Notes: generated from the sequence alone by a model not told the origin. A stretch of DNA of 64,000 nt from Pirellulales bacterium (GCA_044370415.1 JBILVO010000004.1:3467-67466), one strand, 5' to 3'; positions 51,019-63,573 are shown, counted from the first letter of the stretch. Numbers and translations: made by a program.

Positions 51019-53548
<2,530 letters not shown>

Positions 53549-53966
53549 GCGACGCAGGCCTCACAGGCCGTGGATACATTCATTCGCCGCTGGAGGCGGC
53601 GGCAGCGAGCGCCGAAAAACATCGGCTTCTTCGCCGCTCGCTCTCGTGGAGAAAGGCCAGGGAGGGCTTTTCCCACAGCCAGCTGAGCAGCGCATCTGCG
53701 ACACGTACGGCCGACCGATGCGGCCGCGTTCCGCCCGAGTCGCTTCGTGGTCAACAGGGCGCCTCTTCCATGCCGCCGCGACGGCACGGGCCCGCTTGCG
53801 CCGATTGCCCGTCTTACCCCGCCTCTCCCGGGGCTTCTCCGCGTGATCCTGCCGTTGCCGCCCCTGGGAGGTTCCGTTACAAACCCCGGGCCTGAAACGG
53901 CCTGTTCGTCCCGGTTTTTCGCCGCGAACACGTGCCGGAGCACGAGGCCCAGCCCAGAGGTGTCCG

Positions 53967-54728
53967 ATGAGCAGCCGCCTTCCGGAACGGAAACAGGATC
54001 ATCGGAAACAGGATCTTCGGGCCTCGGGCGGCCGCCGCCGTGCGGCTGGGCGACGGCCGGCCGTCGCCACCGTGGCCGGGTCATCCGCCTGGCTCGGGGA
54101 CGACCGCCTCTTCACGCCGCTGGCGTACGAGCCCGGCTACGACTACCCGCTGCTGGTCTGGCTGCCCGGGCAGGCGGAGGAGGAGCCGGCCAAGCGATTC
54201 GATCTGGCCCGCACGATGACGCGGGTGAGCCTCCGCAATTTCGTCGCGATCCAGCCGCTGCCCGCGGCGGATGATCCGGCGACGCTCGGCTGGGACGACC
54301 TGGTCTTCCGCTCGATCGACCGCGTCCGCGAACGGCTCTCGATCCATCGCCGACGCGTCTTCCTCGTGGGCCGTGGTTCGGGCGGCACCGAGGCGTTTCG
54401 CATCGCCTGCCGGCATCCCGACGCCTTCGCCGGTGTCGTGTCGATCGGCGGGCCGTTTCCTCTCGACGAGGGGCTGTTCGCACGGATCGCCGAGGTGCGA
54501 CGCCTCCCGATGCTGCTCTGCTGCCGACAGGGCGGTGCCGACGACGTCCGCGCCGCGCACGTGGACCGCACCCTGCGGCTCTTCCACGCCGCCGGCGCGT
54601 CGCTCGCCATGCGGATCTATCCCGGCCGCAACGACCTGGCCCGTGGAGTCCTGGCCGACGTGAACCGCTGGGTCATGGACGAAGTCTGCGGCAGTCCGGC
54701 CAACGTCCACTCGCTCTCCGCCTCGTGA
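53967..54728 (+). CDS. Alpha/beta hydrolase-fold protein (carboxylesterase-like) lacking the canonical catalytic Ser/His
   Basis: YEPGYDYPLLVWLPG, SIHRRRVFLVGRGSGG, FAGVVSIGG, YPGRNDL. Confidence 0.75.
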   Translation: MSSRLPERKQDHRKQDLRASGGRRRAAGRRPAVATVAGSSAWLGDDRLFTPLAYEPGYDYPLLVWLPGQAEEEPAKRFDLARTMTRVSLRNFVAIQPLPAADDPATLGWDDLVFRSIDRVRERLSIHRRRVFLVGRGSGGTEAFRIACRHPDAFAGVVSIGGPFPLDEGLFARIAEVRRLPMLLCCRQGGADDVRAAHVDRTLRLFHAAGASLAMRIYPGRNDLARGVLADVNRWVMDEVCGSPANVHSLSAS

Positions 54729-55267
54729 CAGGCAACACGACGATGTCGCTCCCCTCCCGTTCCCGCCACCTGGTTCCCGACGGCGCGTCGCTCCGCGACC
54801 TGCTCGCGTCGATCGTCGCCGACTGCTGCCGCTCCGCCCGGGAGCGGGGCCTGCCCGCCGTCGCCGTGACGCTCGATGCGCCCGGAGGGCAGCTCGTCCC
54901 GGCCGCGGCCACACCGCTTCGCCGCCTCCTCGAATCGCTGCTGCGCCGGGCCGTCGAGTCGGCCGCGGGAGCCGAGCGTGAGGGGGATGCCCCGCTGATG
55001 CGCGAAGTGCTTGTGACAAGCGTCGACATGGACGATTGCATCGAGATCGAGGTCGCCGATTCCGGGGCCGGACTCCCGCGGGAGGTCCGCGCGTGGCTCG
55101 CCGGCCAAGGCGACGAGACGCCCGCCGGGGCGGGGCTGGCGCTGGCTGCGGTGCGGGCGGCGGCCGATCGGATCGGCGGCACGGTCTGCGCCGTCGATTG
55201 CCCCGAGGGAGGCGTGGCCGTCACGCTCCGCCTGCCGCGTCGTCAGGCACAGCGGCTGGCCGCCTGA
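54725..55267 (+). CDS. Stand-alone HATPase_c-like domain protein (no HisKA, degenerate N box)
   Basis: G1 IEVADSGAGL, G2 GAGLALA, CPEGGVAVTLRLP; N box reads ESLLRRAVES; GTGA overlap. Confidence 0.75.
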   Translation: MTGNTTMSLPSRSRHLVPDGASLRDLLASIVADCCRSARERGLPAVAVTLDAPGGQLVPAAATPLRRLLESLLRRAVESAAGAEREGDAPLMREVLVTSVDMDDCIEIEVADSGAGLPREVRAWLAGQGDETPAGAGLALAAVRAAADRIGGTVCAVDCPEGGVAVTLRLPRRQAQRLAA

Positions 55268-55357
55268 CCCGCCCGAGCACCACCGCGGTCCGACACACCA
55301 CGAGGACGTCGCCGCACAACCGGTCTTTTCACGGCCGCACGTCACGAAGGGCAGTGC

Positions 55358-57553
55358 ATGGACGCACAGCTGGGTTCATCGTCGATTCGCCATCACACCC
55401 TGCCGCTCGCGCCGGCGCAGGTGATCGCGCTGGGCCTCGTCGCAGCGTCGATCGGCTGGGCCGTGTGGCTGCTGCGCGACAGGCCGGCCAGCGAGGAGGT
55501 CGAGCTGCTCGCCGGGATGGTGCTGCCGTCGTCGGAGATGGCCATCATGGAGGCCGCCTTCGACCGGGCACAGCTCGGCGACCACCGCACCGAGGGCGGC
55601 CGGGTGTGGGTGCCGCGTAGCCGGCAGAGCGCCTACATGCGGGCGTTGGTCGATGCCGAGGCGTTGCCGCGCGAGTTCGGCGGCAGCCTCCGCCGCGCCC
55701 TCGAGAAGAACAGTCCGTGGCAGAGCAGGGCGGTGCAGGACGAGCTGCTGCGGGTGGCGACCCAGGAGGAGCTGTCGCTGGTGATCTGTTCGATGCCCGG
55801 CATCGAGCGGGCGGCCGTGCTCTACGACACGGAGAGCCGCGGCGGGTTTGACGGCACCGGCCACGGTCAGCCCGCCAAGACGGCGAGCGTGAACGTGCGC
55901 ACCCAGCCCGACACCGAGCTCGATCCGGCGCGGGTGCAGGCGATCCGCGTGCTGGTGAGCTCGTCGATCGCGGGGCTGACGCCCGAGCGGGTCGCGGTCA
56001 CGGACCTGCGCAGCGGCCGCGTCCACGCGGGACCGCTCGACGCCGACGCCGACCGTGAGTCGGCCGCGGCGGCGGCCGATCCGGCGCTGGCCCGCCGGAT
56101 CGCCCACGAGCGGCACCTGGCCGCGAAGGTGCGGCAGGCGATCTCCTTCATCAAGGGGGCCGCCGTCGACGTCACCGTGGAGTTCGCCGGGCCCGAGAGC
56201 GATGCGGCGCCGGTGCCGCCCGCACCGGCCGTGGTCGACGTCCGCGGCGCCGTGCCGCTCCAGAGGGCCGCCGACGCCAACGCCCCCGCCGAGATCCAGC
56301 CGGCGGCGCCGGTGGCAGCAGTGCCGCCGCCCGCGGCCGCTCCGCGGGCGACCCCGGAGCCGCCCGATGCGGCCCCGAACGCCATCTTCGTCTCGATCGC
56401 CGTGCCCGAGAGCTACTTCCAGGCCGCTTGCCGCGCCGCCGCCGAACGGGCGGGGCAGCCGCTGCTCCAGCCGCTCGCCATCGAGACCCAGGAGACCGAA
56501 CGGATCCGTCAGCACGTACTCGCGCTGCTGCCGGCGACCCGCGATCCCGCCCGCCGCCGCGTCGTCGTCACCGGGTTTCCGATCGGGGGGCCGCTCGCCG
56601 GCCGTCGCGACCAGCCATCGCGTGCCGCCAGCTCCGCCGTCGACGGCGGCAGCCGCGACAAGGCGTCGCCGGCGAGCCTCGAAGAGGTCGTCGCGCTGGT
56701 CGCCGCCGGCCGCTTCGACGAGGTGCCGCGGCAGATCTGGCTGGCGACCATGAGCGTGAGCGTCGGCCTGCTGGCGGCCCTGCTGTGGATGCTCGGCGGG
56801 CGCGCCGACTCCTCCGGAGACAGCGGGATGCACGCCCGTCGTGCCCCGCCGCGGATCGACTGGTCGGCGGCGGGCGATCCGCACGAAGAAGGACATGCGA
56901 CGCAGGAACGCCCCGGCATCGCGCGGGCAGCGACTCTGCTCCTCTGCCTGACTCTCTCGGCCGGCACCGTGCGGGCTGCCGGCGCCGACCCGGTGCCGCC
57001 GTCGCCGGAGTCGGTCCTGCCCGAGCCGGACGCAGCCCCGCAGTCCGAGCCGACCGCCCGCGGCGCGGAGTCCGCGACGCCGCGATCGGTGGCGCACCGC
57101 CATGCGGGGCCGGCCCCCCAGGTGCTGCCGGCCTTGCCGCTCGACGGATCAAGGGGCTCCGCGGGAGACGATCCCGTCGCCGCTTCCCCGCGGATCGGCG
57201 ACTGGAAACTGCTCGCCGTGATCGTCGCCGCCTTTGCCGCGGTCGGCGTCGCCTCGCGGCTGTCGCGGCGCAAGACGGCGACACTGCCGCCCGACGTGTT
57301 CGAAGTGCTCGGGACGGCACCACTCGCCGGACAGCACGCGGTGCGGATCGTGCGGTTCGGCCCCAAGACGCTCCTCATCGGCGTGTCCACGGGCGGCTGC
57401 CAGACCCTCGCCGAGATCTCGGATCCGCAGGCCACGGCCTGCATCGCCGCAGCCTGCCGCGGCAGTCATCCGCCCCTGCGGGCCGCCGCGCGGAGCGATC
57501 AACGGCCCGCACCGCCGCCGGCGACGCCGCGGACCGGCCGGGAGGCCGCATGA
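55358..57553 (+). CDS. FliF/YscJ-like MS-ring protein fused in-frame to a FliO-like C-terminal domain
   Basis: RBM2 motifs EELSLVICSMPGIERAAV, KTASVNV, QAIRVLVSSSIAGLTPERVAVTD; RBM3 fragments; TM2; then FliO-like TM + PDVFEVLGTAPLAGQHAVRIVRFGPKTLLIGVSTGGCQTLAEISDP. Confidence 0.78.
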   Translation: MDAQLGSSSIRHHTLPLAPAQVIALGLVAASIGWAVWLLRDRPASEEVELLAGMVLPSSEMAIMEAAFDRAQLGDHRTEGGRVWVPRSRQSAYMRALVDAEALPREFGGSLRRALEKNSPWQSRAVQDELLRVATQEELSLVICSMPGIERAAVLYDTESRGGFDGTGHGQPAKTASVNVRTQPDTELDPARVQAIRVLVSSSIAGLTPERVAVTDLRSGRVHAGPLDADADRESAAAAADPALARRIAHERHLAAKVRQAISFIKGAAVDVTVEFAGPESDAAPVPPAPAVVDVRGAVPLQRAADANAPAEIQPAAPVAAVPPPAAAPRATPEPPDAAPNAIFVSIAVPESYFQAACRAAAERAGQPLLQPLAIETQETERIRQHVLALLPATRDPARRRVVVTGFPIGGPLAGRRDQPSRAASSAVDGGSRDKASPASLEEVVALVAAGRFDEVPRQIWLATMSVSVGLLAALLWMLGGRADSSGDSGMHARRAPPRIDWSAAGDPHEEGHATQERPGIARAATLLLCLTLSAGTVRAAGADPVPPSPESVLPEPDAAPQSEPTARGAESATPRSVAHRHAGPAPQVLPALPLDGSRGSAGDDPVAASPRIGDWKLLAVIVAAFAAVGVASRLSRRKTATLPPDVFEVLGTAPLAGQHAVRIVRFGPKTLLIGVSTGGCQTLAEISDPQATACIAAACRGSHPPLRAAARSDQRPAPPPATPRTGREAA

Positions 57554-58449
57554 GGCGGGCCATGCGGCTCGGCGTCGTCCGCGCGACCGCGGCCGCACTG
57601 CTGGCGGCATGCGTCCTGGCATCGGCCTGCGCGGAGGAGCCGGCCGCGACGGCGGTGGAGCCGGCGTCGCTCCGCCTGATCCCGGCGACGGGCGAGCCCG
57701 CGGTCGCGGGGACGGCCGCGCCGCAGCCCGCGCGTCCGCAGGGTGAGGCAGGAGAAGCCGCGGCACTGGCGGTGCGGCTGCTCGGCACCCGCTCGCTCGA
57801 CACGCTCCTCCCGGCGCTGCTGATGTTCGGCGTGGCGAGCCTGGCGCCCGCCGTGCTCCTGATGACCACGTGCTTCGTGCGGATCTCGATCGTGCTGGCG
57901 CTCGTCCGCCAGGGTCTCGGCACGGCGCAGCTGCCGTCGAACCAGATCCTCACGTCGCTGGCCCTCTTCCTCTCGGCGCTGGTCATGTGGCCGGTCTGGA
58001 CCGCCGCCTACCGCGACGGCATCGAGCCCTACCAGCAGGGCAGGATCGAACTGGCCGCGGCATACGACCGGGGGAGCCTGCCGGTGCGCCGCTGGATGGC
58101 GGCGCAGATCGAGCAAGCGGGCAACCGAGACACGATGCTCTTCTTCCTCGCGCGGCATCCCTCGGCGCCCACCCGCGTGGCGACCTACGACGACGTGCCG
58201 GTCGAGACGCTGCTGCCCGCGTTCCTCGTGAGCGAGCTGAAGACCTCCTTCGCCATCGGCTTCCGGATCCTGCTGCCGTTCCTGGTGCTCGACGTGCTCG
58301 TGGCGACGCTCGTGGTGTCGACCGGGCTGGTCATGCTGCCGCCGACACTGGTGTCGCTGCCGCTGAAGCTGCTGGTGTTCGTGGCCGCGGACGGCTGGTC
58401 TCTGGTGGTGCGGTCGCTGCTCGACGGGATGCGGCAGGCGACCTCGTGA
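57550..58449 (+). CDS. fliP: Flagellar/T3SS export gate protein FliP (SctR), divergent
   Basis: SLAPAVLLMTTCFVRISIVL, LPSNQILTSLALFLS, LLPAFLVSELKTSF, LPPTLVSLPLKLLVFVAADGW. Confidence 0.93.
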   Translation: MRRAMRLGVVRATAAALLAACVLASACAEEPAATAVEPASLRLIPATGEPAVAGTAAPQPARPQGEAGEAAALAVRLLGTRSLDTLLPALLMFGVASLAPAVLLMTTCFVRISIVLALVRQGLGTAQLPSNQILTSLALFLSALVMWPVWTAAYRDGIEPYQQGRIELAAAYDRGSLPVRRWMAAQIEQAGNRDTMLFFLARHPSAPTRVATYDDVPVETLLPAFLVSELKTSFAIGFRILLPFLVLDVLVATLVVSTGLVMLPPTLVSLPLKLLVFVAADGWSLVVRSLLDGMRQATS

Positions 58450-58480
58450 CCCCGCGACACCCCCGGCCCGGGAGGGTCCG

Positions 58481-58732
58481 ATGAACGACGGCGAACTCGT
58501 GGAACTCGTCAGGCAGGCGATCCTGTCGGGCCTGATCGTGATCGCGCCGGTGCTCTGCGCGGGCTTCGCGGTGGCCACGGTCGTCGGACTCGTCCAGGCG
58601 GCGACCGGCGTCCACGAACCGCTCGTCGGCTTCGTGCCGCGGCTGGTGGCCATGGCCGCCACGCTCCTGATCACGATGCCCTGGATGGTCGAGCGGCTCG
58701 CCGACATGTTCCGCACCGCGGCGGGGCCGTGA
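58481..58732 (+). CDS. fliQ: Export gate protein FliQ (SctS), divergent
   Basis: 83 aa, two hydrophobic helices, GLVQAATGVHEPLVGFVPR, MPWM; position after fliP. Confidence 0.88.
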   Translation: MNDGELVELVRQAILSGLIVIAPVLCAGFAVATVVGLVQAATGVHEPLVGFVPRLVAMAATLLITMPWMVERLADMFRTAAGP

Positions 58733-58800
58733 TCGCGCCCGCTCGACGCCTGTCGTCGTATCGATCCACCGAGAGGAGCGGCTGAGCCGCAGCGCCCGTC

Positions 58801-59574
58801 ATGCCCATCACCCCGCTGCCGTCCGCCGACATGCTCGTCGCCACGGGGGTCTGCCTCCGGATGGTGGCGGCGGTCATCGCCGGCACGCTGCCGATCCTCG
58901 AGGGCGCGTCGGTCCGGATCCGGATCGCGCTGGCCGCGGCGCTGGCCGTCGTCGCCGTGCCCATGGCCTGGCAGGCGCACGCGGTGCACCCGGCTGCGGG
59001 GCCGGCGGTCGTGCTGGCCGGGGAGCTGCTCGTGGGCCTGGTGATGGGCACGGCCGTGGCGGCACTGCTCTCCGCCACCGGCTGGGCCGGGGCGATCCTC
59101 GGCAGCGTCTCGGGCCTGTCCTGGTCCGACGACTTCGCCGCGGCAGGCGATCCGCAGTCGGCGGGCGTCGCCAGGCTGGCGTGGTGGATCGGGCTGGCCG
59201 CCTTCGTCGCTGCCGGCGGACAGCTGACCGTCGTCGGGGGCCTCGTCGACAGCGTGCGCCACCTGCCGGTCGGCACCGTGGGCAGCATGCAGTCGGCCGG
59301 GGGCTCGATCCTCGATCTCGCCATCGCCATGCCCGCCATGGCGATCTCGCTGGCCGTGACGCTGGCGATCCCCGCGCTGGCCGCTGTGCTGGCCTTTCAC
59401 TTGGCCGCCGTCTTCTGCCTGCGCACGGTGGCGCTGCCGCCGGGAGCGGGATTCCTGCAGGGAATGGCCGCGGTCGTGCTCCTGGCCGCCGTGTGGCTCG
59501 GGCTGCGGACGTGGACGGACGGTGGCGTCGCCATGACGCTCGGCTCGATCGCCGACTGCTTCGCGCCGAGGTGA
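58801..59574 (+). CDS. fliR: Export gate protein FliR (SctT), strongly divergent
   Basis: 257 aa hydrophobic; VRIRIALA, GELLVGLVMG, AGAILGSVSGLS, VDSVRHLPVG, SLAVTLAIPALAA; position after fliQ. Confidence 0.82.
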   Translation: MPITPLPSADMLVATGVCLRMVAAVIAGTLPILEGASVRIRIALAAALAVVAVPMAWQAHAVHPAAGPAVVLAGELLVGLVMGTAVAALLSATGWAGAILGSVSGLSWSDDFAAAGDPQSAGVARLAWWIGLAAFVAAGGQLTVVGGLVDSVRHLPVGTVGSMQSAGGSILDLAIAMPAMAISLAVTLAIPALAAVLAFHLAAVFCLRTVALPPGAGFLQGMAAVVLLAAVWLGLRTWTDGGVAMTLGSIADCFAPR

Positions 59575-59578
59575 ATCG

Positions 59579-60376
59579 ATGGGAGACGCGGACGACCGCA
59601 CGATCCCGGCGACGCCCCGCCGCCGGGAACTGGCCCGTCGGCAGGGCGGCATGCCGCTGGCGCACCAGCCGGCCTGGGCGGCCGCCGCGGCGACGACCGT
59701 GCTGCTGCTGCCGGCCTGGGCGCGGGCCACCTTCCCCGCGGCGACCGAGATGATGCGGGGGGCACTGACCGCGGCCGTGATCGACGGCGGCTCGGCGGCC
59801 CCGCGGGCCGCCCCGGCGGTCCCGTTGGCGATGCTCGTCCCCACCGCGGCCGTGATCGTCGCGGCCGGTGTCGTCGGCCTGGCGGTGCGGCTGCTGCTCG
59901 ACGGCGGCGGCTGGAGGCCGTCGCGGGTGGCGCCGTCGCTCGACAGGATCAGCCTGATCGCGGGGCTCGCGCGGATCTTCTCGGCACGCACCGCCGTCGT
60001 CGTGGCGACGAGCGCCGCGGCACTGGCCACCGTGACCGCGGTCGGGATCCTCTTCGTGGGCCCGCTCGTGGCCGTGCTCGGGGAGCCGGCGGCCGCGGCC
60101 GAGCCCGAACTGCTCATGCTTCCCATGCGTCGCGCCCTCGTCGCCGTCGCGGCCGGGTCTGTGGTGCTGGCCGCCGGCCAATGGATCATGGCGCGGCTGC
60201 GTTTCGAGCGTCGCATCCGCATGACCCCGCAGGAATATGCGGACGAGGCCCGGAGCATGCAGGCGGCGCCGCAGGTGCGGCTGATGCAGCGTCGGGCCGG
60301 CGCCACCACCGCCCATCCCCGGCCCGCGGCCGCGGATTCCGCCGCCGGGCTGCGATCCGCAGCGGCTTCGCGATAG
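59579..60376 (+). CDS. flhB: FlhB (SctU)-like protein truncated before the NPTH autocleavage domain
   Basis: N-terminal DDRTIPATPRRRELARRQG, PSRVAPSLDRISLIAGLARIFS, FERRIRMTPQEYADEAR; stop ~30 codons later, no NPTH. Confidence 0.8.
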   Translation: MGDADDRTIPATPRRRELARRQGGMPLAHQPAWAAAAATTVLLLPAWARATFPAATEMMRGALTAAVIDGGSAAPRAAPAVPLAMLVPTAAVIVAAGVVGLAVRLLLDGGGWRPSRVAPSLDRISLIAGLARIFSARTAVVVATSAAALATVTAVGILFVGPLVAVLGEPAAAAEPELLMLPMRRALVAVAAGSVVLAAGQWIMARLRFERRIRMTPQEYADEARSMQAAPQVRLMQRRAGATTAHPRPAAADSAAGLRSAAASR

Positions 60377-60444
60377 AATGTGATGACGCGCGGCTGCGCG
60401 GTCCTCAGGGGAGTCTCGTCGAACACCGTCTCGTCGAACCATCC

Positions 60445-63400
60445 ATGATCTACACGACCCACACCTGCCGCGGCCTGCTCCGATCCGTCCTCCTGGTTCT
60501 GGCGTGCGCGTCGACCTCCATCGGCCAGCCGCCGCCACCTGGCGGTCCGCCCGGCGCCGCTCCTCCCCCCGCCAGCGAGCCCAACCCGCCGCCCAAGGAC
60601 GCCAAGCTGGTCGCCGAGGTCTATACGAAGCTCGTCGCGGCGAAGCCCGTCGATGCCGACACGCTGGCCGCGAAAGTCTCCGACTACCCCGTCTGCCGGC
60701 TGCGGCTCTACGTGCCGCCGCAGGTCGGCGAGAAGGGCATCGTCGGCATCGACCACGGTATCTTCCGGTCGACCGGAAAGGTGAAGTCGATCACGCTGTC
60801 GGGCACGAGCGCGGTCTTCCGCTCGCGGCTCAATCAACTGCTCGCCGACCCCGCGGCCGCGTCGACGAAGAACGGCGAGGCCGGGGTGCGGGTCGTCGAC
60901 TTCTGGTGCCAGCGGCCGGAGGGCGCGACGACCTACGTGCCCTACCTGCCGCTGCTGGCGAAGGTGTGGTCCAACGCGTCGGCGGCCGACATTCCCGCCG
61001 GCGACACGACGACGCCGGTGCCGGGACTCGTCTGTTACGACGACACGCCGGAGATCGCCGAGTGCCAGCAGGCGTTCGACTACTCGCCTCCCGTGTTCAA
61101 GAAGGGCATGACCGAGGTCGAGGCTCCGGCGAGCACCGTCACCGCACTGGCGGAGGCGATCAAGTCGCACCGCACGCAGTTGGCGGCGGTGGTCACCAAG
61201 CTGGCAGCGGACAGGATGACGACCAAGCGCATGCCGAATCTCGGCGGGTCCCTGATCATGCTCGACTCGACGCACTCGCTCGGCGAGGAGGCGTGCTCGC
61301 ACGCGGGCACGGCGCCCCGGGTGCTCACAGGAGGCGAGTCGTTCATCGGACTGTCCCCCGACGTGAAGGAGGGCACGGTAACGCTCCGCCAGAAACTGCC
61401 CTTCCCGCTCGGCGCCGGAATCCTGAGGGTGCCGGCGCGAATCACGAGCCCCAAGGCGACGATCGACGTCGAGATCTCGAAGGACGGCGAGAATTGGACG
61501 CGGCTCTTCCTGCTCGCCGCCGACCGCGGCGGCAGCAAGTGGGAGGCCGACGCCTCGTATCCCCTACCCAAGTCATTCCGCGGCTCGGCCAAGTTCCAGA
61601 TCCGCGCCCGTCTCTCTTCGACCGACGAAAAAACCGCCGGCCTCGACCGCGCGGGCGGGCCGCGATTTCTCGACGCCGTGACACGGCTGCCGCGCACGAC
61701 AGAACTCCGCGTGGACGACGGTCTCCTGCGGACGGTCTCGTGCAAGGATCAGGCCGCGGCCGCGGCCAAGCCCTTCTCCCTGCTCATCCAGCCGGAGCGG
61801 CTCGACGTGCAGGCGCTGTCGGAACTGCTGCAGGCACGCGAGGCGGAGAGCGATGTCTACGCTCCGTGCGACCTCGACGAGGCTGCCTGCTCGGCCATCG
61901 CAAAACACGACGGCACGCTGCGCTTCTGGTCGCCGGACGAATGGCAGCAGCATCCTCCCGCCTGGCTGTCGGCGATGGCGGGCGGAGCGGGCCACCTGGT
62001 GTTCGCCGGGCTCGAGCAGCCGGCGCCGGAACTGGCCTCGGCGCTGGCCCCGGGAAAGAAGGCGCTATCGTTCCCGCTCGCCACAGCGCCAGACATCGAA
62101 CTCCTGAAGATCCTCGCCACGTGCACCACCCCGCTGTCGCTGGACGGCATTGTTGATGTGTCCGCAGAGCAGGCCGGTGCGCTGAACGCCTACGCCGGGC
62201 CGAAGCTCTCCCTCGCCGCCGCACGAGCCGCCACCACCTCCGATCCGCCCGGGGCGGCGCTGGCGGCCGCGGTCGTAGCGTCTTCCGGCACGTTCACCAT
62301 CGGCGGTGCGGCGGCTCCGGACGCCGCCACGCTGGCCATCCTGGCCGGTGGACAAAAACACCTCGTATTCGACGGGCTGGAAGCCCTCGACGCGGGAGCC
62401 GCCAAGACCCTGGCAGCCTCGGGCAACGGACTCGCACTGACCGGCCTGGTGTCGTTGCCGCGTGATGCCGCCGACGCGCTCCTCGGCTACCAGGGTCCGC
62501 TGCTTTCGCTGCCCAAGCTGAAGCATGTGACATGCAGCGTGGAAGGGCTGTACCCAGCGAATCAGAAGCCCGTAGTCCGGCTGGCGGCCGCCGTGCGGCA
62601 GGCGGCGCTGGAGGTGGGCGACGACGCAAAGGCCCAGGCGGCCGCGGCGGTGAAGGAACTCGACGCGATCCTCGCCGAAGCGGTGGATCGCGGGCTGTGC
62701 TCTGCCAAGGACAAGGAGCGGATCGCCCGGGGTGTGGAGGCGGCGACGACTTCTCCGGCGGCCATCGTGGACAGGGTCCGCGAAGCGCTCCCGTTGCTGT
62801 CCCCGGACACCCGGCTGGGCATGCGGACCGGGCTCCCGCTCACCGCCTTCGTCGACGCCCCCGGCGTCTTCGTCCTCGAGTCGCCATCGACGGCCCGCAA
62901 GGGCGTGCCCGACAAGGCGTTCTTCGAGACGCTCGCCCAGGGGCGGAAGCACCTCGATCTCTCCAGCCTCACGTCGCTCGACACCGACATGGCCACGGTG
63001 CTGGCGACCACCGAGGGCATCCTGTCGCTCGACGGCCTCACCTCCATCACACCGGAGGCGCTCACTGCACTCGCCGCCTACAAGGGTCCGTTCCTCTCCC
63101 TCAACGGCCTCAAGGTGCCACAGACAGCGGACGATCTAACCAAACTGACGGCAGCATTGAAGCCGATCTTCGAGATGGTGCGCGAGGACCGCGCGAGCGC
63201 CGGCGGACTCTACGCGATCAACATCTCGGGCATGCGCGACTATGTCCTCGAGGCCACCGACTCACTCCCCGAGAAACCGAAGAAGGCCGCCAAGCAGCTC
63301 CAGGCCAATTCGGGCTCTCGCGACTGGGCGAGCCAGGCCGGCCAGCGGGTCAAGGGCAAGGTGCTCGCGCTGCTCGGTCCCGACGTGATCATCGAGACGC

Positions 63401-63573
63401 CGTTCGGGCCCTCGGACGCGACTTCGATCGGTTCGTTCGTGCCGCTCAGCAAGAAGCCACTCATGATGCTGCAGGAGGTGGGTGCGCAGCTCGCCCCCCT
63501 GCGGACAAAGGCCAAGTTCGCCGCGGAGAGCGGTCAGGCCGACGCCGGGGCGGCCACCCCGGCCGGCAACTAA
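60445..63573 (+). CDS. Large exported protein with degenerate ~24-aa leucine-rich repeats
   Basis: Signal peptide + Pro-rich linker; repeats LSLDGIVDVSAEQAGAL, LALTGLVSLPRDAADAL, LDLSSLTSLDTDMATVL, LSLDGLTSITPEALTAL; TAGAAT -10-like box at 60374. Confidence 0.75.
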   Translation: MIYTTHTCRGLLRSVLLVLACASTSIGQPPPPGGPPGAAPPPASEPNPPPKDAKLVAEVYTKLVAAKPVDADTLAAKVSDYPVCRLRLYVPPQVGEKGIVGIDHGIFRSTGKVKSITLSGTSAVFRSRLNQLLADPAAASTKNGEAGVRVVDFWCQRPEGATTYVPYLPLLAKVWSNASAADIPAGDTTTPVPGLVCYDDTPEIAECQQAFDYSPPVFKKGMTEVEAPASTVTALAEAIKSHRTQLAAVVTKLAADRMTTKRMPNLGGSLIMLDSTHSLGEEACSHAGTAPRVLTGGESFIGLSPDVKEGTVTLRQKLPFPLGAGILRVPARITSPKATIDVEISKDGENWTRLFLLAADRGGSKWEADASYPLPKSFRGSAKFQIRARLSSTDEKTAGLDRAGGPRFLDAVTRLPRTTELRVDDGLLRTVSCKDQAAAAAKPFSLLIQPERLDVQALSELLQAREAESDVYAPCDLDEAACSAIAKHDGTLRFWSPDEWQQHPPAWLSAMAGGAGHLVFAGLEQPAPELASALAPGKKALSFPLATAPDIELLKILATCTTPLSLDGIVDVSAEQAGALNAYAGPKLSLAAARAATTSDPPGAALAAAVVASSGTFTIGGAAAPDAATLAILAGGQKHLVFDGLEALDAGAAKTLAASGNGLALTGLVSLPRDAADALLGYQGPLLSLPKLKHVTCSVEGLYPANQKPVVRLAAAVRQAALEVGDDAKAQAAAAVKELDAILAEAVDRGLCSAKDKERIARGVEAATTSPAAIVDRVREALPLLSPDTRLGMRTGLPLTAFVDAPGVFVLESPSTARKGVPDKAFFETLAQGRKHLDLSSLTSLDTDMATVLATTEGILSLDGLTSITPEALTALAAYKGPFLSLNGLKVPQTADDLTKLTAALKPIFEMVREDRASAGGLYAINISGMRDYVLEATDSLPEKPKKAAKQLQANSGSRDWASQAGQRVKGKVLALLGPDVIIETPFGPSDATSIGSFVPLSKKPLMMLQEVGAQLAPLRTKAKFAAESGQADAGAATPAGN

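Follow-up and report, generated by a model that had tools for sequence, protein, structure and literature searches.

Which parts of the type III secretion system (T3SS) suffice on their own is an open question that bears on the evolution of both the flagellum and the injectisome. It is raised by five genes in a 64,000-nucleotide stretch of DNA from a Pirellulales bacterium (GCA_044370415.1 JBILVO010000004.1:3467-67466; the window hereafter), which lies within contig C227 of a 4.2-Mb metagenome-assembled genome (MAG; labelled G000) of 263 contigs and an estimated completeness of 94%. A first-pass annotation, made from the sequence alone, had read these genes as a collapsed flagellar cluster coding for the MS ring and the export gate only, and had left two explanations standing: a repurposed minimal channel and a decaying flagellar locus. 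The evidence that we bring to this question consists of the gene content of the locus, a deletion between fliF and fliO, conservation in ~40 species, purifying selection, and a remodelling of the retained proteins that is specific to particular domains. As judged from these sequence comparisons, the lineage lost its flagellum yet keeps the ring and the export pore under selection, and this core very probably has a job other than swimming.

Gene content, deletion and selection at the locus

Gene calls together with Pfam and NCBIfam profiles, which were used for family assignment, confirm five co-oriented open reading frames (ORFs) for FliF/FliO, FliP, FliQ, FliR and FlhB (Table 1). They also confirm the proposed ATGA coupling of fliO to fliP, with an overlap at 57550-57553 that joins the fliO stop to the fliP start. 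FliP, FliQ and FliR all score above the cut-offs of their Pfam families (PF00813, PF01313 and PF01311). The motifs of the cluster had been called strongly divergent, which holds for FliF, FliR and FlhB but not for FliP, as the latter matches solved FliP structures at E 2e-44. FliP is present as one copy in the genome, and its hydrophobic gating loop reads GLVMLPP versus GMMMVPP in Salmonella. Relative to the injectisome, the gate is Fli-type rather than Sct-type and there is no T3SS ATPase. Specifically, FliP scores 219 bits on the flagellar equivalog versus 147-159 bits on SctR models, and FliQ, FliR and FlhB likewise score higher on flagellar models. General profile scans gave no secretin SctC, needle SctF or SctD ring beside the cluster; no search was aimed at them.

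Profile searches covered 26 genomes, to which the window's genus contributed 16 and other families of the order 10. FliP is present in all 26 (16/16 in the genus) and FlhA in 24 of the 26 (14/16 in the genus). The 16 genus genomes gave no FliG_C (PF01706), and none of them has a rod motif (PF00460, Flg_bb_rod), a flagellin (PF00669) or a type III ATPase (FliI) over cut-off; FliG_C, rod, flagellin and FliI are all present in most other families of the order. TIGR01026 matches at ~216 bits and below, versus a cut-off of 379.5, are read as non-T3SS P-loop ATPases. We also queried the window's own genome by tblastn with the FliG/H/I/J/N proteins of a related locus, L063, and with many flagellar proteins of the flagellated relative G016. 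The L063 queries had no match there, nor did FlgB, FlgC, FliE, FliG-K, FlgD, FlgE, FlbD, FliL and FliM/N of G016, apart from three weaker ATPase paralogs that were hit by FliI; the flagellated-relative queries otherwise matched FliF and FliO only. MotA and MotB of G016 gave no tblastn match in the own genome at E <= 0.01, and no profile search was run for them.

The window itself holds no fliG, fliM/N, fliH/I/J or flhA, much as the first-pass annotation had said of the cluster and its flanks, though flhA lies on another contig, C118. The word "only" in that annotation therefore has to be given up: the ring and FliPQR/FlhB are retained, but so is a full-length FlhA, which is under selection and lies next to fliA and flgM. 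A complete canonical flagellar set with a full-length flhB elsewhere was found neither in the 16 genus genomes nor by tblastn in the own genome. These absence calls rest on uncultured MAGs, of which 16 agree, and the deletion is visible at the locus itself.

The deletion is best seen by comparing related loci. In ~30 loci among L003-L042, those where the contig is long enough, the order is mdh, a hydrolase-like gene of 253 amino acids (aa), a 180-aa HATPase_c gene, fliF-fliO-fliP-fliQ-fliR and a 237-273-aa flhB. L063 and G022 have the same upstream genes, with a Pfam-verified fliG-fliH-fliI-fliJ-fliN block (5-6 kb) between fliF and fliO, and L043, L044, L061, L068 and L073 have the same upstream context with a 5-6-kb fliF-fliO gap, the gene content of which was not checked. 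In the collapsed loci fliF directly abuts fliO with no room for fliG-fliN; the fliG-to-fliN block is deleted at this locus. The operon of G016 reads flgB-flgC-fliE-fliF-fliG-fliH-fliI-fliJ-...-flgD-flgE-flbD-motA-motB-fliL-...-fliO-fliP, with gene names assigned by order and length and anchored on profile hits. Since G016, L063/G022 and the collapsed loci differ stepwise, the order holds a series of states, namely a full flagellum, a FliFGHIJN-OPQR-FlhB core without axial parts, and a ring and gate only. Within the intermediate core FlhB is full-length in G022 and truncated in G020, L043 and L073.

The collapsed order is kept with open frames in ~40 species-level loci. Pairwise ratios of nonsynonymous to synonymous substitution (dN/dS; NG86, least diverged pairs) are 0.02-0.15 for FliP, 0-0.27 for FliQ, 0.06-0.18 for FliR, 0.09-0.25 for FlhB and 0.13-0.22 for FliF/FliO, and within the genus those of FlhA are 0.12-0.24 for the transmembrane (TM) domain and 0.21-0.33 for the C domain. 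All of these values are approximate at high third-position G+C content (GC3) yet far below 1, indicating purifying selection. The 40 collapsed loci group together as a single clade of the FliP tree (support 100/100) with a stem branch of 1.97 substitutions per site, internal branches of <=0.35 and a median terminal branch of 0.09. The long stem and short crown indicate a burst followed by stasis, which is the pattern of a functional shift and not of steady erosion. Thus neither a full flagellar set elsewhere nor dN/dS near 1 with frameshifts has appeared, and the view of the locus as decaying is rejected in the face of open frames in ~40 species with dN/dS of 0.02-0.25. The view of a repurposed minimal channel gains from the same purifying selection, which occurs without rod or flagellin in the 16 genus genomes, while action as a channel is a prediction.

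Table 1. Genes of the ring-and-gate cluster, of its upstream neighbours and of flhA. Locations are window positions unless a contig is named.
Feature	Length (aa)	Location	Strand	Profile matches and remarks
FliF-FliO fusion	731	55358..57553	+	YscJ_FliF residues 78-217 E 1.6e-16; FliO residues 637-694 E 4.3e-6
FliP, pore subunit	299	57550..58449	+	PF00813 E 1.7e-63; TIGR01103 219.3 bits vs cut-off 217.45
FliQ, export gate subunit	83	58481..58732	+	PF01313 E 1.5e-19; kept in all related loci
FliR, export gate subunit	257	58801..59574	+	PF01311 E 7.5e-20; synteny
FlhB, N-terminal part	265	59579..60376	+	PF01312 E 1.7e-27, profile positions 2-244 of 335
FlhA	710	contig C118 2779-4908		PF00771 619.8 bits, profile positions 2-655
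Alpha/beta-hydrolase-like protein	253	53967..54728	+	Weak Abhydrolase and PHB-depolymerase matches; 3' end overlaps next gene by 4 nt
HATPase_c-only protein	180	54725..55267	+	PF02518 E 9.2e-11

Remodelling of the retained proteins

The first ORF of the cluster joins FliF and FliO in one protein. Hydropathy analysis gives four hydrophobic segments at residues 21-39 (FliF TM1), 460-478 (FliF TM2), 520-538 (signal-like) and 618-636 (FliO TM). The features follow in the order TM1, the ring-building motifs RBM1, RBM2 and RBM3 (the last split by a disordered Pro/Ala stretch at 276-341), TM2, the additional hydrophobic segment, the FliO TM and the FliO domain. The FliO domain is cytoplasmic in Salmonella FliO, and the even number of segments after FliF TM2 means that it can remain cytoplasmic in the fusion. 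An AlphaFold2 model of residues 1-500, with a mean predicted local distance difference test (pLDDT) score of 74, shows TM1, RBM1, RBM2, RBM3 and TM2, with RBM3 interrupted by the disordered 65-residue Pro/Ala stretch at what is presumably the place of the beta-collar in Salmonella FliF. The Foldseek top matches of this model are FliF MS-ring structures, with a TM-score of 0.85-0.93 on RBM2 chains. When read by eye, the FliF part lacks the C-terminal FliG-binding motif that is present in the FliF of L063.

One ORF carries the fusion both in the window and in 8 other genomes (L003-L010), with a conserved junction, and the nine fusion-bearing loci form one sub-clade in the FliP tree (support 99/98). 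This indicates one real fusion event and no assembly error. Other clade members code for FliF and FliO in separate ORFs. In approximately half of the loci where both fliO and fliP were located, these two genes lie in one open frame without a stop between them (L011, L013-L017, L020, L023, L026-L029, L031, L032, L041 and L042), and the shared frames may be FliO-FliP fusions. FliO thus appears to be joined to either neighbour, FliF or FliP.

The truncation of FlhB that had been reported is also upheld. The window FlhB runs from the N-terminal hook through four TM helices and the cytoplasmic loop to the linker, but it lacks the C-terminal autocleaving switch domain (FlhB_C), and its alignment to solved chains of 376-415 residues stops at approximately residue 250, upstream of the site of NPTH cleavage. 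The length of FlhB is 237-273 aa in every collapsed locus versus ~350-362 aa in flagellated relatives. In the own genome, tblastn with a relative's full-length FlhB and a six-frame motif search gave neither FlhB_C nor an NPTH-context sequence. A split FlhB_C gene elsewhere was considered and rejected, as tblastn returned the N-terminal part only, a weak match on contig C240 is ferrochelatase-like by eye, and there is no NPTH-context motif.

FlhA is remodelled in a different manner. It is present as a single copy in the own genome, on the 5-kb contig C118, and its alignment to the 692-aa FlhA chain 36hw_A2, which we take to be Salmonella FlhA, spans residues 11-691. By the numbering of that chain the genus keeps R147, R154 and D158 and has the changes K203R and D208E, where these charged TM and loop residues presumably constitute the ion pathway. 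At the chaperone-docking positions, F459 and T490 occur without exception in G020 and four flagellated relatives. The genus has T/S and R there; G022 has L and A, and in G018, which is from another family of the same order, the segment is deleted. The C domain of FlhA (FlhA_C) is ~35% identical to that of flagellated relatives and ~70% identical within the genus. FlhB_C is the receptor and switch for rod and hook substrates. Thus, with FlhB_C lost and a change in the docking dimple of FlhA, which serves filament-type chaperones, the substrate-recognising parts for rod, hook and filament are gone or altered while the translocating parts stayed.

The genes next to flhA are also informative. Three other genus genomes share the order TerC, flhA, fliA, flgM and fur, where FliA/WhiG scores 263 bits on TIGR02479 (cut-off 189.6) and the FlgM-like protein scores 29.9 bits on PF04316 (cut-off 25). 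The own genome has TerC and FlhA on C118, and C231, a contig of 3 kb, carries FliA (92% identical to that of G010), FlgM (80%) and Fur; as their genes match the order in the three genus genomes, these two contigs probably abut. Counting the own genome with this inferred junction, four genus genomes have flhA, fliA and flgM side by side. FlgM has a polar N-terminus, invariant over its first 17 residues, and a variable middle; the secretion signal of Salmonella FlgM is located at the N-terminus. No flgM was found by tblastn near fliA in flagellated and semi-reduced relatives.

Upstream of flgM, a sigma-28-type promoter, CTGAAGT-N15-GTCGATGA, is conserved in four species of the genus. The site lies at C231:1245-1273 of the own genome and recurs in L097, L098 and L099, in the form CTGAAGT-N15-GTCGAT(G/A)A after a T-run. 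It is the sole perfect match in the 4.2-Mb genome, which indicates that the sigma-28 regulon may be very small or may use a looser motif. Sigma-28 control of the gate operon was considered and rejected, as the window has no match to the flgM motif at up to 3 mismatches.

A few further observations concern sigma-28 itself. FliA is ~78-82% identical between the ring-and-gate-only genus (G010) and flagellated or semi-reduced relatives (L108, L109 and L110; L106 and L107), and is thus far more conserved across the same relatives than FlhA (TM ~56-60%, C domain ~35%) or FliP (~50%). In Planctomycetota, sigma-28 appears to serve more than flagella. In G022, an 83-aa ORF between flhA and fliA (L107:280-531) matches the FlhF N-terminus only and looks like an flhF remnant, and flhG is absent from this region.

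Neighbouring genes, related loci and known systems

A hydrolase-like gene lies upstream of fliF in ~30 collapsed loci and also in the semi-reduced L044, L061, L063, L068, L073 and G022, so that it is syntenic with fliF across several families; it is possibly the first gene of the operon. Its nucleophile elbow reads GRGSGG versus the expected GxSxG, with Gly in the place of Ser, and the protein may therefore be catalytically dead. The HATPase_c-only gene is always directly 5' of fliF in reduced loci, and no full kinase model fits its product. Its N-box Asn is replaced by R/E in most of the collapsed clade and kept in L044, L063 and L073, and the G1 box, DSGxG, is retained. This protein may serve the ring as a degenerate ATP-binding partner. 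On the other side of the cluster, a 1042-aa protein (60445-63573) starts like a signal peptide, is rich in Pro and Gly at its N-terminus and matches no Pfam or NCBIfam profile. It follows flhB here and in one related locus only (L005, 31% identity), and is outside the conserved module. A scan of 53400-60700 for sigma-70 promoters and terminators gave nothing above chance.

The G+C content of the window is 70-76%. Related genomes are metagenome assemblies of freshwater Pirellulales/Planctomycetota, and the DNA runs that bear the locus are lake-water metagenomes. Several of the MAG records with collapsed loci (L004, L012, L013, L017, L020, L025, L029, L032 and L042) are titled 'Candidatus Kuenenia' or 'Chitinophagaceae'; these are probably mislabelled, because their loci fall inside the Pirellulales clade. 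As weak transcript evidence, short metatranscriptome contigs of one run match fliF, fliO, fliP and the flhB 3' end. In this single run, X25, they cover ~18% of the locus versus ~4% of the neighbouring respiratory cluster, a higher coverage that is suggestive. The run is labelled fish gut and its contigs are 95-100% identical to the lake planctomycete over window positions 53900-61000; they may derive from ingested or water-borne cells.

We next surveyed 251 Planctomycetota genomes of >=85% completeness, where FliP was found in 148, flagellin in 138 and FliG_C in 141. Fifteen of the 251 have FliP without flagellin. Ten of these lack FliG_C too; they comprise the window's own family, G028, and four genomes each of families f60 and f88. 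The f88 locus codes for FliF, a FliG_N-only protein, FliO, P, Q, R, FlhB (268 aa), FlhA, FlhF, FlhG and FliA; in one of its genomes (G264, L111:8114-8788) the protein between fliF and fliO is 224 aa long and has only the N-terminal, FliF-binding domain of FliG. The f93 locus codes for FliF, G, H, I, N, O, P, Q, R, FlhB (267 aa), FlhA, FlhF, FlhG and FliA. Both f88 and f93 belong to another Planctomycetota class, and the f60 loci retain FliH and FliI. Truncated FlhB in separate lineages indicates that FlhB_C was lost along with axial substrates more than once. In G018, a 632-aa ORF (L100:6865-8763) combines FliF RBM1-2, FliG_M and a degenerate FliG_C, and after it come FliO, P, Q, R and an FlhB of 231 aa. 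G018 was rejected as a member of the same collapse, as its FliF-FliG_M fusion is a different rearrangement and it falls outside the 40-member clade. It lacks FliH/I/J/N, rod proteins and flagellin, and thus took a different route to a reduced ring.

The closest structural reference for these proteins is the flagellar export apparatus within the MS ring of Salmonella and Vibrio (6F2D, 6S3L, 6SCN, 8WKQ), to which the FliF, FliO, FliP, FliQ, FliR, FlhB TM part and FlhA described here are homologous. A flagellar-equivalog FliP, the FlhA residues R147/R154/D158 and the folds of FliF RBM1-3 are shared with that apparatus. In contrast to it, the planctomycete set has no FlhB_C, FliH/I/J, FliG/M/N, FliE or rod, FliF is fused to FliO, a Pro/Ala stretch lies in RBM3 and the docking residues of FlhA are replaced. 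Two results obtained with known systems are relevant here: Salmonella type III export is possible without ATPase activity (PMC4230889), and the membrane part of FlhB assembles onto FliPQR (PMC7064499).

Partial flagellar loci in non-flagellates have been noted generally (PMC3459982, PMC12199754), and four cases bear comparison. The 'orphan CORE' FliOPQR-FlhBA of non-flagellated Myxococci, Chloracidobacterium and Succinatimonas, for which nanotube nucleation has been proposed (PMC6456723), has the same gene set without most flagellar or injectisome genes, and an own function was suggested for it; its content, FliO/P/Q/R, FlhB and FlhA with the rest absent, is also that of the present genome. 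However, those orphan COREs were described from presence/absence tables only, whereas for the present locus the deletion could be mapped and selection measured, FlhB is truncated, and FliF, which is outside the CORE definition of that paper, is kept and fused to FliO. Lysobacter enzymogenes OH11 is likewise a free-living non-flagellate with flagellum-derived export genes, which are expressed and used for a non-swimming purpose (PMC7688988, PMC7277350). It keeps FliI, on which secretion depends, FlhB and hook-related proteins such as FlgD, whereas the planctomycete set is without ATPase, rod and hook. The flagellin-less basal bodies of Buchnera were reduced by gene loss and proposed to be a protein exporter (Maezawa 2006; Toft and Fares 2008, both as relayed in PMC3459982). 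Buchnera is an obligate endosymbiont reduced to the basal body, as opposed to a free-living lake bacterium with ring and gate only; both Lysobacter and Buchnera thus retain far more of the basal body. Finally, in the non-flagellated Legionella oakridgensis, FliA and FlgM persist (PMC5655016); unlike in that species, the gate persists here and flhA, fliA and flgM are adjacent. Our literature search found general precedents but no published description of this planctomycete system. Thus, orphan export cores are known, and what is new is an unusually extreme, well-conserved and recurrent case with a truncated FlhB and a fused FliF-FliO.

What the retained core may do

We consider it probable, though with ample room for doubt, that the locus codes for a functional non-flagellar export core that is kept by selection. 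The ancestral Pirellulales locus would have read mdh-hydrolase-HATPase_c-fliF-fliG-fliH-fliI-fliJ-fliN-fliO-fliP-fliQ-fliR-flhB, from which the block from fliG to fliN was lost together with a third of flhB at its 3' end, along with the rod, hook, filament, stator and ATPase genes genome-wide. What remains is FliF, here in fusion with FliO (an assembly factor for FliP), the FliPQR pore and the membrane clasp of FlhB, with FlhA, FliA and FlgM coded elsewhere. This complex may still assemble in the inner membrane and would form a gate driven by the proton motive force without an ATPase, C-ring or specificity switch, and such a rod-less gate would let a few unfolded substrates pass to the periplasm. 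FlgM, the only classical type III substrate still encoded, stands out as the most concrete candidate. If FlgM is exported, sigma-28 would be freed and a former assembly checkpoint would have become a free-standing gene switch, which is the least certain step. FlgM is favoured as the client because its gene follows flhA-fliA and has a conserved sigma-28-type promoter and an invariant N-terminus; even so, this FlgM-specific version of the export reading is tentative, and we would sooner expect it to be wrong than right.

Several points weigh against export as proposed here. We infer assembly, gating and substrates alike from the genes of uncultured organisms, the dN/dS values are imprecise at GC3 >90%, and the RNA evidence consists of one run of short contigs in which DNA carry-over is possible. 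As regards FlgM, model flagella export it only after FlhB_C switches, and the altered docking site of FlhA, which normally serves late-substrate chaperones, could oppose docking of FlgM/sigma-28. The flgM motif has no convincing match elsewhere in the genome that would mark other sigma-28 promoters. FliA/WhiG is over cut-off in 223 of the 251 surveyed genomes, many of which have no FliP, and the presence of such a near-universal sigma-28 therefore does not tie it to the gate. In Legionella oakridgensis FliA and FlgM function without a gate, where FlgM is thought to be degraded (PMC5655016).

The alternative that survives best, although we regard it as unlikely, is that the ring and gate were kept for something other than export, such as a scaffold or polar landmark, a signalling platform for the co-transcribed HATPase_c protein (much as FlgS of Campylobacter senses the MS ring and the flagellar T3SS, fT3SS), an FlhA-based ion channel or a nanotube base. 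The constant presence of the HATPase_c-only protein and the Ser-less hydrolase upstream of fliF in reduced loci would fit such a role, as would the loss or remodelling of the substrate-recognising parts of FlhB and FlhA. On the other hand, kinase-type signalling by the HATPase_c protein is doubtful with its N-box Asn lost, and the nanotube role of CORE is disputed. The three pore subunits, the FlhB clasp and the ion-pathway residues of FlhA are moreover conserved together, which a mere scaffold would hardly need, and FlhA_C is still ~70% identical within the genus. Precedents for a non-export role are an fT3SS and MS ring that serve as a transcriptional checkpoint (PMC7064773), and the CORE FliOPQR-FlhBA, reported to nucleate nanotubes as proposed in Bacillus, with orphan COREs in non-flagellates (PMC6456723).

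It is very improbable that the locus is a remnant on its way to pseudogenisation with frames open by chance. FliF, FliR and FlhB are indeed far below NCBIfam equivalog cut-offs, FliP scores 215 versus ~250 bits and FlhA 620 versus ~845 bits in flagellated relatives, and high-GC genomes keep spurious frames open. Against this stand ~40 species-level genomes with intact, ordered genes at dN/dS of 0.02-0.25, a divergence that falls on the stem branch and not in the crown, and the same outcome in other Planctomycetota lineages. It is hardly credible that the locus belongs to a complete flagellar regulon as one of its normally dispersed pieces, with the rest missed: the MAG is fragmented and incomplete (263 contigs, 94%), with flhA, fliA and flgM on other short contigs, and flagellar genes are scattered in flagellated relatives (e.g. 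contigs C10 and C52 of G016), but 16 independent genus MAGs agree in having no FliG, rod, flagellin or FliI, fliF abuts fliO, FlhB is truncated in every member with no FlhB_C elsewhere, and sensitive within-order protein queries match nothing.

If the export reading is correct, the core could be a third T3SS-derived machine beside the flagellum and the injectisome, an exporter from cytoplasm to periplasm driven by the proton motive force with FlgM as its client and probably at least two independent origins. We put this forward as a speculative proposal that is more apt to fail than to hold. The locus is in any case a natural and long-lived experiment, in ~40 free-living species, that stands beside laboratory ATPase-free export, and the intermediates give an ordered pathway of loss from a full flagellum to ring and gate only. 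The pattern also predicts a pairing of domains with clients, in that FlhB_C and the docking dimple of FlhA vanish with the rod, hook and filament substrates, and the minimal seven-gene set bears on the disputed 'CORE'/nanotube proposal. For the organism itself, were FlgM export true, a stand-alone switch would couple membrane energisation or the state of the cell cycle to sigma-28 expression.

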